The position numbers and the translations under genes are program-made. This document shows positions 33,365 to 33,380 of a stretch of 64,000 nucleotides of DNA, piece by piece (the first letter of the stretch is position 1; the number at the start of each line of letters is the position of its first letter). Under the pieces are notes generated by a model. The model worked only from the letters and a program-made list of their open reading frames with translations, was not told where the DNA came from and made no database searches. This stretch comes from Escherichia coli (GTDB lineage: Bacteria > Pseudomonadota > Gammaproteobacteria > Enterobacterales > Enterobacteriaceae), in assembly GCF_003334315.1 (NCBI RefSeq), contig NZ_QOWR01000021.1, one strand, 5' to 3'.

Positions 33365-33380
33365 ACGAAACCGTTTGCGT
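33365..33380. promoter_or_regulatory. PurR operator (pur box) of purL
   Basis: acgaaaccgtttgcgt (reverse complement ACGCAAACGGTTTCGT), about 80 bp upstream of the purL ATG. Confidence 0.75.

Follow-up and report, generated by a model that had tools for sequence, protein, structure and literature searches.

Upstream of purL and of glyA, the 64-kb stretch of Escherichia coli DNA analysed here (64,000 nucleotides of contig NZ_QOWR01000021.1, hereafter the window) carries two 16-bp imperfect palindromes that resemble operators of PurR, the purine repressor of the LacI family. They raise two questions: whether both are PurR operators (PUR boxes), and why the two genes differ in how far PurR represses them. 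Repression of purL by PurR is larger than that of glyA, which in the work of Steiert et al. 1990 was reportedly about 2-fold. The reading that we regard as nearly certain is that both palindromes are PurR operators, with PurR presumably occluding the promoter at purL and probably damping transcription from an upstream position at glyA, as judged from deduced transcription starts and a deduced link between operator position and strength of repression. Match to the motif, statistical significance and conservation were all observed directly in this analysis, and adenine-stimulated occupancy of both 16-mers by PurR in vivo has been published (Cho et al. 2011, PMC3159470). No observation speaks against the identity of either site.

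An exact match search finds ACGAAACCGTTTGCGT only once in the window, at 33365-33380, and ACGCAAACGATTACCT likewise once, at 23371-23386, both on the + strand. On the strand of the genes (-), the purL box reads ACGCAAACGGTTTCGT and the glyA box reads AGGTAATCGTTTGCGT. The purL coding sequence (29401-33288, - strand) encodes phosphoribosylformylglycinamidine synthase of 1295 aa, according to the list of open reading frames and the RefSeq annotation of colinear E. coli loci. From the open reading frame list and RefSeq annotation as well, the glyA coding sequence (21999-23252, - strand, annotated ATG at 23252) encodes serine hydroxymethyltransferase. The first-pass annotation had placed a PurR operator about 80 bp upstream of purL, which is correct, given that the box is found 77-92 nt upstream of the purL start codon; for glyA the distance from the upstream box to the ATG is 119-134 nt. 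Both are thus in the 5' region of genes of purine, one-carbon or nucleotide metabolism (gene identities from RefSeq and colinear genomes), in the gene order yphH-glyA-hmp-glnB-glrR-qseG-glrK-glmY-purL-mltF.

Both sites qualify as 16-bp imperfect palindromes fitting ACGNAAACGTTTGCNT. One half of each is the perfect consensus ACGCAAAC; its partner is ACGAAACC at purL and, at glyA, the degenerate AGGTAATC with three mismatches. Complementary pairs number 6 of 8 in the purL palindrome and 5 of 8 in that of glyA, as counted on the sequence. The central CpG (positions 8-9) is kept in both sites (purL ACGAAAC-CG-TTTGCGT, glyA ACGCAAA-CG-ATTACCT), and the central CG is invariant across all homologous boxes. 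In the PurR-DNA crystal structures of Schumacher et al. 1994, the hinge helices and Leu54 are said to insert at this central CpG.

For scoring, a position weight matrix (PWM) was derived from Table 1 of Cho et al. 2011, using the 26 PurR motifs that remain once purL and glyA are held out. The purL box scores 21.73 bits (p = 1.7e-8 per position) and the glyA box 21.40 bits (p = 2.3e-8 per position), so that the two sites picked out in the first-pass annotation are the top two among 128,000 window positions, with the next independent match at 13.2 bits. Based on exact p-values, 0.002-0.003 matches of such quality are expected per window, and the window, simulated 200 times under a first-order Markov model, gave a maximum of 21.3 bits. 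Both scores sit inside the range of the core pur genes, which extends from 18 to 25 bits with purT as the top site (24.8 bits).

The third-ranked match is a weak PurR-like box, TTGAAATCGTTTGCAT, at 25221-25236 on the + strand, 68-83 nt upstream of glnB (ATG at 25153, - strand). Its 13.2 bits correspond to 1.3 expected matches per window with the held-out matrix, and its 16-mer is shared only with Citrobacter werkmanii, without conservation in more distant genera. We considered it as a third significant site and rejected it, because its score is at chance level and its conservation is restricted to Citrobacter. The glnB gene is an earlier characterised PurR target that was missed by ChIP-chip (Cho et al. 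2011, PMC3159470).

With regard to the two strong sites, the operators of purL and glyA were footprinted around 1990 and belong to the textbook purine regulon. In E. coli K-12, ACGAAACCGTTTGCGT is the motif under the purL PurR ChIP-chip peak, and AGGTAATCGTTTGCGT, the reverse complement of ACGCAAACGATTACCT, is the motif under the glyA peak (Cho et al. 2011, PMC3159470, Table 1); at both sites the coordinates given there are 1,978 bp off those of NC_000913.3. ChIP enrichment at glyA was 2.08 with adenine and 1.13 without, and at purL it was 1.88 with adenine and undetected without (PMC3159470). Adenine stimulates PurR binding and is converted to the corepressor hypoxanthine (PMC3159470). RegulonDB lists the glyA site as 'confirmed' by cross-validating footprinting, site mutation and ChIP, and its evidence paper refers to Steiert et al. 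1990, 1992 and Lorenz & Stauffer 1996 on glyA and, where the pur genes are concerned, to He et al. 1990 and Meng et al. 1990 (PMC3548332). Given the published ChIP motifs at both sites and the RegulonDB evidence for glyA, the two 16-mers are the published, already known PurR operators of purL and glyA, and the PurR identity that had been assigned to them agrees verbatim with the ChIP motifs. As a discovery this carries little weight, given that these are textbook operators that were re-mapped by ChIP-chip in 2011. Their identification here does show that real operators are recognisable from raw sequence alone.

Although the window comes from a strain different from K-12, its purL operator shows no difference from that of K-12 (He et al. 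1990; Meng et al. 1990; Cho et al. 2011), with an identical 16-mer in the same placement between purL and mltF. The same holds within the glyA operator (Steiert et al. 1990, 1992; Lorenz & Stauffer 1996; Cho et al. 2011), where the 16-mer is identical and the whole glyA-hmp intergenic region matches K-12 exactly. Between positions 20000 and 35744 the window is colinear with K-12 MG1655, gap-free and at 99.2% identity, and K-12 has both 16-mers at the corresponding loci. A 601-bp query around the purL box matches all complete E. coli genomes (5426/5426), in each case between annotated purL and mltF, with a top identity of 99.8%. The 40-mer centred on the purL box is identical in 5403 of these 5426 genomes, and the 40-mer centred on the glyA box in 4661 of the 5426. 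The E. coli variants that were inspected fall at 33362 (C/A) and 23394 (A/G), both outside the 16-mers; the latter is a common polymorphism 8 nt beyond the glyA box. The purR gene, which is a core gene in E. coli, is itself located outside the 64-kb window. In K-12, the operator of purR is found at 1.74 Mb (Cho et al. 2011, PMC3159470).

At purL, the probable -10 hexamer is a perfect TATAAT at 33342-33347 (- strand), assigned from the sequence and its conserved spacing, and it lies exactly 17 nt downstream of the box. This places the -35 position under the box, which covers the -35 hexamer TTTCGT plus 10 bp upstream of it, and points to repression by promoter occlusion. Judging from the hexamers, transcription would start near 33335, in which case the box spans about -30 to -45. 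The purL promoter was not called in a consensus promoter scan of the window, because its -35 hexamer TTTCGT matches TTGACA at only 2/6 positions. As a rule, PurR sites fall within the -35/-10 region, and the step on which they act is initiation (Cho et al. 2011, PMC3159470). The core pur operators (purF, purT, purHD, purMN and purEK) overlap the -35/-10 region and have the consensus ACGNAAACGTTTGCNT and the central CpG in common with both boxes. Like them, the purL box overlaps the -35 position, which is the typical case according to Cho et al., and it deviates from the core consensus at two positions, both in the promoter-proximal half. In contrast to the core pur operators, the glyA box is not inside the core promoter but upstream of it.

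The conservation of the purL box was assessed through a DNA-pattern scan of genome contigs for the N-terminal codons of purL, which gave 120 loci, and the 300 nt upstream of purL were examined at each. The box is identical or one base off in 113 of the 120 sampled loci, spanning Enterobacterales and Vibrionaceae. An identical 16-mer is present at 74 loci, with Escherichia, Citrobacter, Enterobacter, Klebsiella, Yersinia, Serratia, Dickeya, Pectobacterium, Photorhabdus, Xenorhabdus, Providencia, Proteus, Edwardsiella, Budvicia and Arsenophonus among the genera, and a further 39 loci are one base off, mainly the Erwinia/Pantoea group (24 loci, G at position 1) and Photobacterium, Enterovibrio and Grimontia (11 loci). 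The remainder consists of two Vibrio loci with a related box (18.1 bits), three loci with upstream DNA too short to judge, a Phycisphaerae locus that is a chance match of the search pattern, and Zophobihabitans entericus, where the 300 nt upstream of purL hold no PUR box (top score -0.2 bits). When the loci are anchored on the box, information content is 1.91 bits per column in the purL box vs 0.28 in the 45 nt of distal flank. At the 17-nt spacing from the box, the hexamer is TATAAT in 98 of the 113 loci and TATACT in four more. A first small addition made here is that the purL operator is almost invariant across Enterobacterales, as is the 17-nt distance between it and the -10 hexamer. In genus Yersinia the purL box is identical to the E. 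coli 16-mer, and in a Yersinia pestis delta-purR strain purL is derepressed (log2 1.9-2.8). In Vibrionaceae, the purL box precedes the ATG by 150-190 nt, and at the 17-nt spacing downstream of the box the hexamer is mostly A-rich (e.g. AAAAAA); as this hexamer is not TATAAT, the architecture of the purL promoter differs there.

At glyA, the candidate -10 hexamer is TATACT at 23324-23329 (- strand), which stands out as a conserved gTTAtACTg in the alignment of glyA upstream regions; this TATACT (23329 to 23324 in gene direction) is the glyA element conserved among Enterobacterales. The candidate -35 element is CTGTTA at 23347-23352 (- strand), with a 17-nt spacer to TATACT. The promoter scan gives an alternative -35, TTGTCA at 23357-23362 (- strand), with a 16-nt spacer to AATGAT. 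Read along the glyA strand, the order is AGGTAATCGTTTGCGT, aaattcct and TTGTCA, followed further downstream by CTGTTA, 17 nt and TATACT. Under either model the box is clear of the core promoter, ending 8-18 nt upstream of the -35 element, and it would span roughly -54 to -69 relative to the start, which is predicted at about 23317-23319. Six loci from the purL scan that include glyA were available for comparison: an Enterobacter-like MAG, Pseudocitrobacter, Pantoea, two Rosenbergiella and Photobacterium. All six have a glyA box, scoring 17-24.6 bits and situated 114-120 nt from the ATG (85 nt in Photobacterium). Conservation is mainly in the consensus half, CG(T/A)TTGCG(T/C), and the distal half varies.

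The mechanism that we propose is that a PurR dimer, with hypoxanthine or guanine as corepressor, binds each 16-bp imperfect palindrome across the central CpG. At purL, bound PurR would exclude RNA polymerase from the -35 region and could thereby strongly repress initiation. At glyA, bound PurR would leave the core promoter uncovered, and, since the operator lies upstream of the -35 hexamers, it would be expected only to dampen transcription.

A different account of the weaker glyA repression, which the first-pass annotation had favoured, is that the degenerate half-site makes the glyA operator a poorer PurR site of lower affinity than that of purL. The half-site comparison does point this way, with three mismatches to ACGCAAAC in the distal half AGGTAATC of glyA as against two in the purL half ACGAAACC, and with 5/8 palindromic pairs in glyA vs 6/8 in purL. 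However, the held-out PWM totals are nearly equal (21.4 bits for glyA, 21.7 for purL), and in a pooled half-site matrix the weaker half of glyA scores 8.46 bits vs 8.13 for that of purL. At glyA, ChIP enrichment does not fall below that at purL (2.08 with and 1.13 without adenine, vs 1.88 and undetected), and AGG-type left halves are common at strong sites, e.g. purEK, purB, purR and sdaCB among the Cho et al. motifs. Furthermore, the operators differ in position, over the -35 position at purL and upstream of the core promoter at glyA. We therefore consider lower affinity an unlikely cause. With the two sites separated by neither matrix scores nor ChIP signal but differing in position, we favour operator position as the better candidate for the difference in repression. 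A second small addition is thus that the step from a degenerate site to weak repression finds no support for glyA in matrix scores or ChIP signal.

The remaining alternatives concern what the boxes are for. Short imperfect palindromes are common and the third-ranked PWM match, at glnB (13.2 bits), is itself at chance level with 1.3 expected per window, so both motifs might be thought chance palindromes without function. Against this, two matches of a quality expected 0.002-0.003 times per window are observed, both in promoters of published PurR regulon genes, conservation across Enterobacterales and Vibrionaceae extends to the purL 16-mer but not to its flanks, and published ChIP occupancy falls exactly at both 16-mers. 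Exact PWM p-values, Markov simulations and conservation all rule out chance occurrence, the probability of which is negligible. Operators of the LacI family have a CG-centred palindrome in common, and RbsR has been reported to bind some pur promoters, which would fit boxes that mainly serve another LacI-family regulator with a similar half-site and bind PurR only incidentally. We find this very improbable, given that the PurR-specific ChIP peaks on both 16-mers respond to adenine, that a PWM made of PurR sites alone scores both boxes as high as the core pur genes, and that deletion of purR derepresses purL in Yersinia, where the box is identical. On the + strand, the purL box is overlapped by a promoter-like site (CTGACG-18-TAAAAT, 33362-33391) that points towards the divergent mltF (start codon at 33546), so the box might control mltF in addition to repressing purL. 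Such a dual role is improbable, as Cho et al. assign the ChIP peak to purL only, the mltF-facing site is a weak consensus match (9/12), and conservation is poor on the mltF side of the box (0.28 bits per column).

Two further features of the purL promoter were observed. The two bases of the purL box that break the palindrome and depart from the consensus (gene strand ACGCAAACGgTTtCGT, promoter-proximal half) are invariant in 74 of 113 species. Promoter strength does not explain this conserved imperfection, because a perfect half-site would give a better -35 hexamer (TTGCGT). In the purL leader, a tract of about 20 nt after TATAAT, g.cgcccgTTTTCCCC (about 33320-33341, - strand), is conserved at 1.0-1.9 bits per column across 113 species. 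It includes TTTTCCCC, and the remainder of the leader is far less conserved. The tract may correspond to a GC-rich discriminator or to the region transcribed first. The frozen bases and the leader tract together could reflect a second control that has not been described, e.g. a ppGpp/DksA-sensitive discriminator or control by the initiating nucleotide; alternatively, they could reflect a deliberate tuning of PurR affinity against -35 strength. That the purL promoter carries regulatory information beyond the PurR box is a speculative idea, which we hold to be doubtful.

An Rfam scan of the window found no RNA family in the intergenic region of either box. Elsewhere in the window, matches at the gathering threshold are naRNA4 (195-266), GlmY between glrK and purL (28938-29085), OhsC (38265-38341), rncO (41754-41968), AsrC (44751-45582), ES036 (52049-52091) and, at the window end, 5S rRNA (63817-63932), all of them ordinary features of the corresponding K-12 region.
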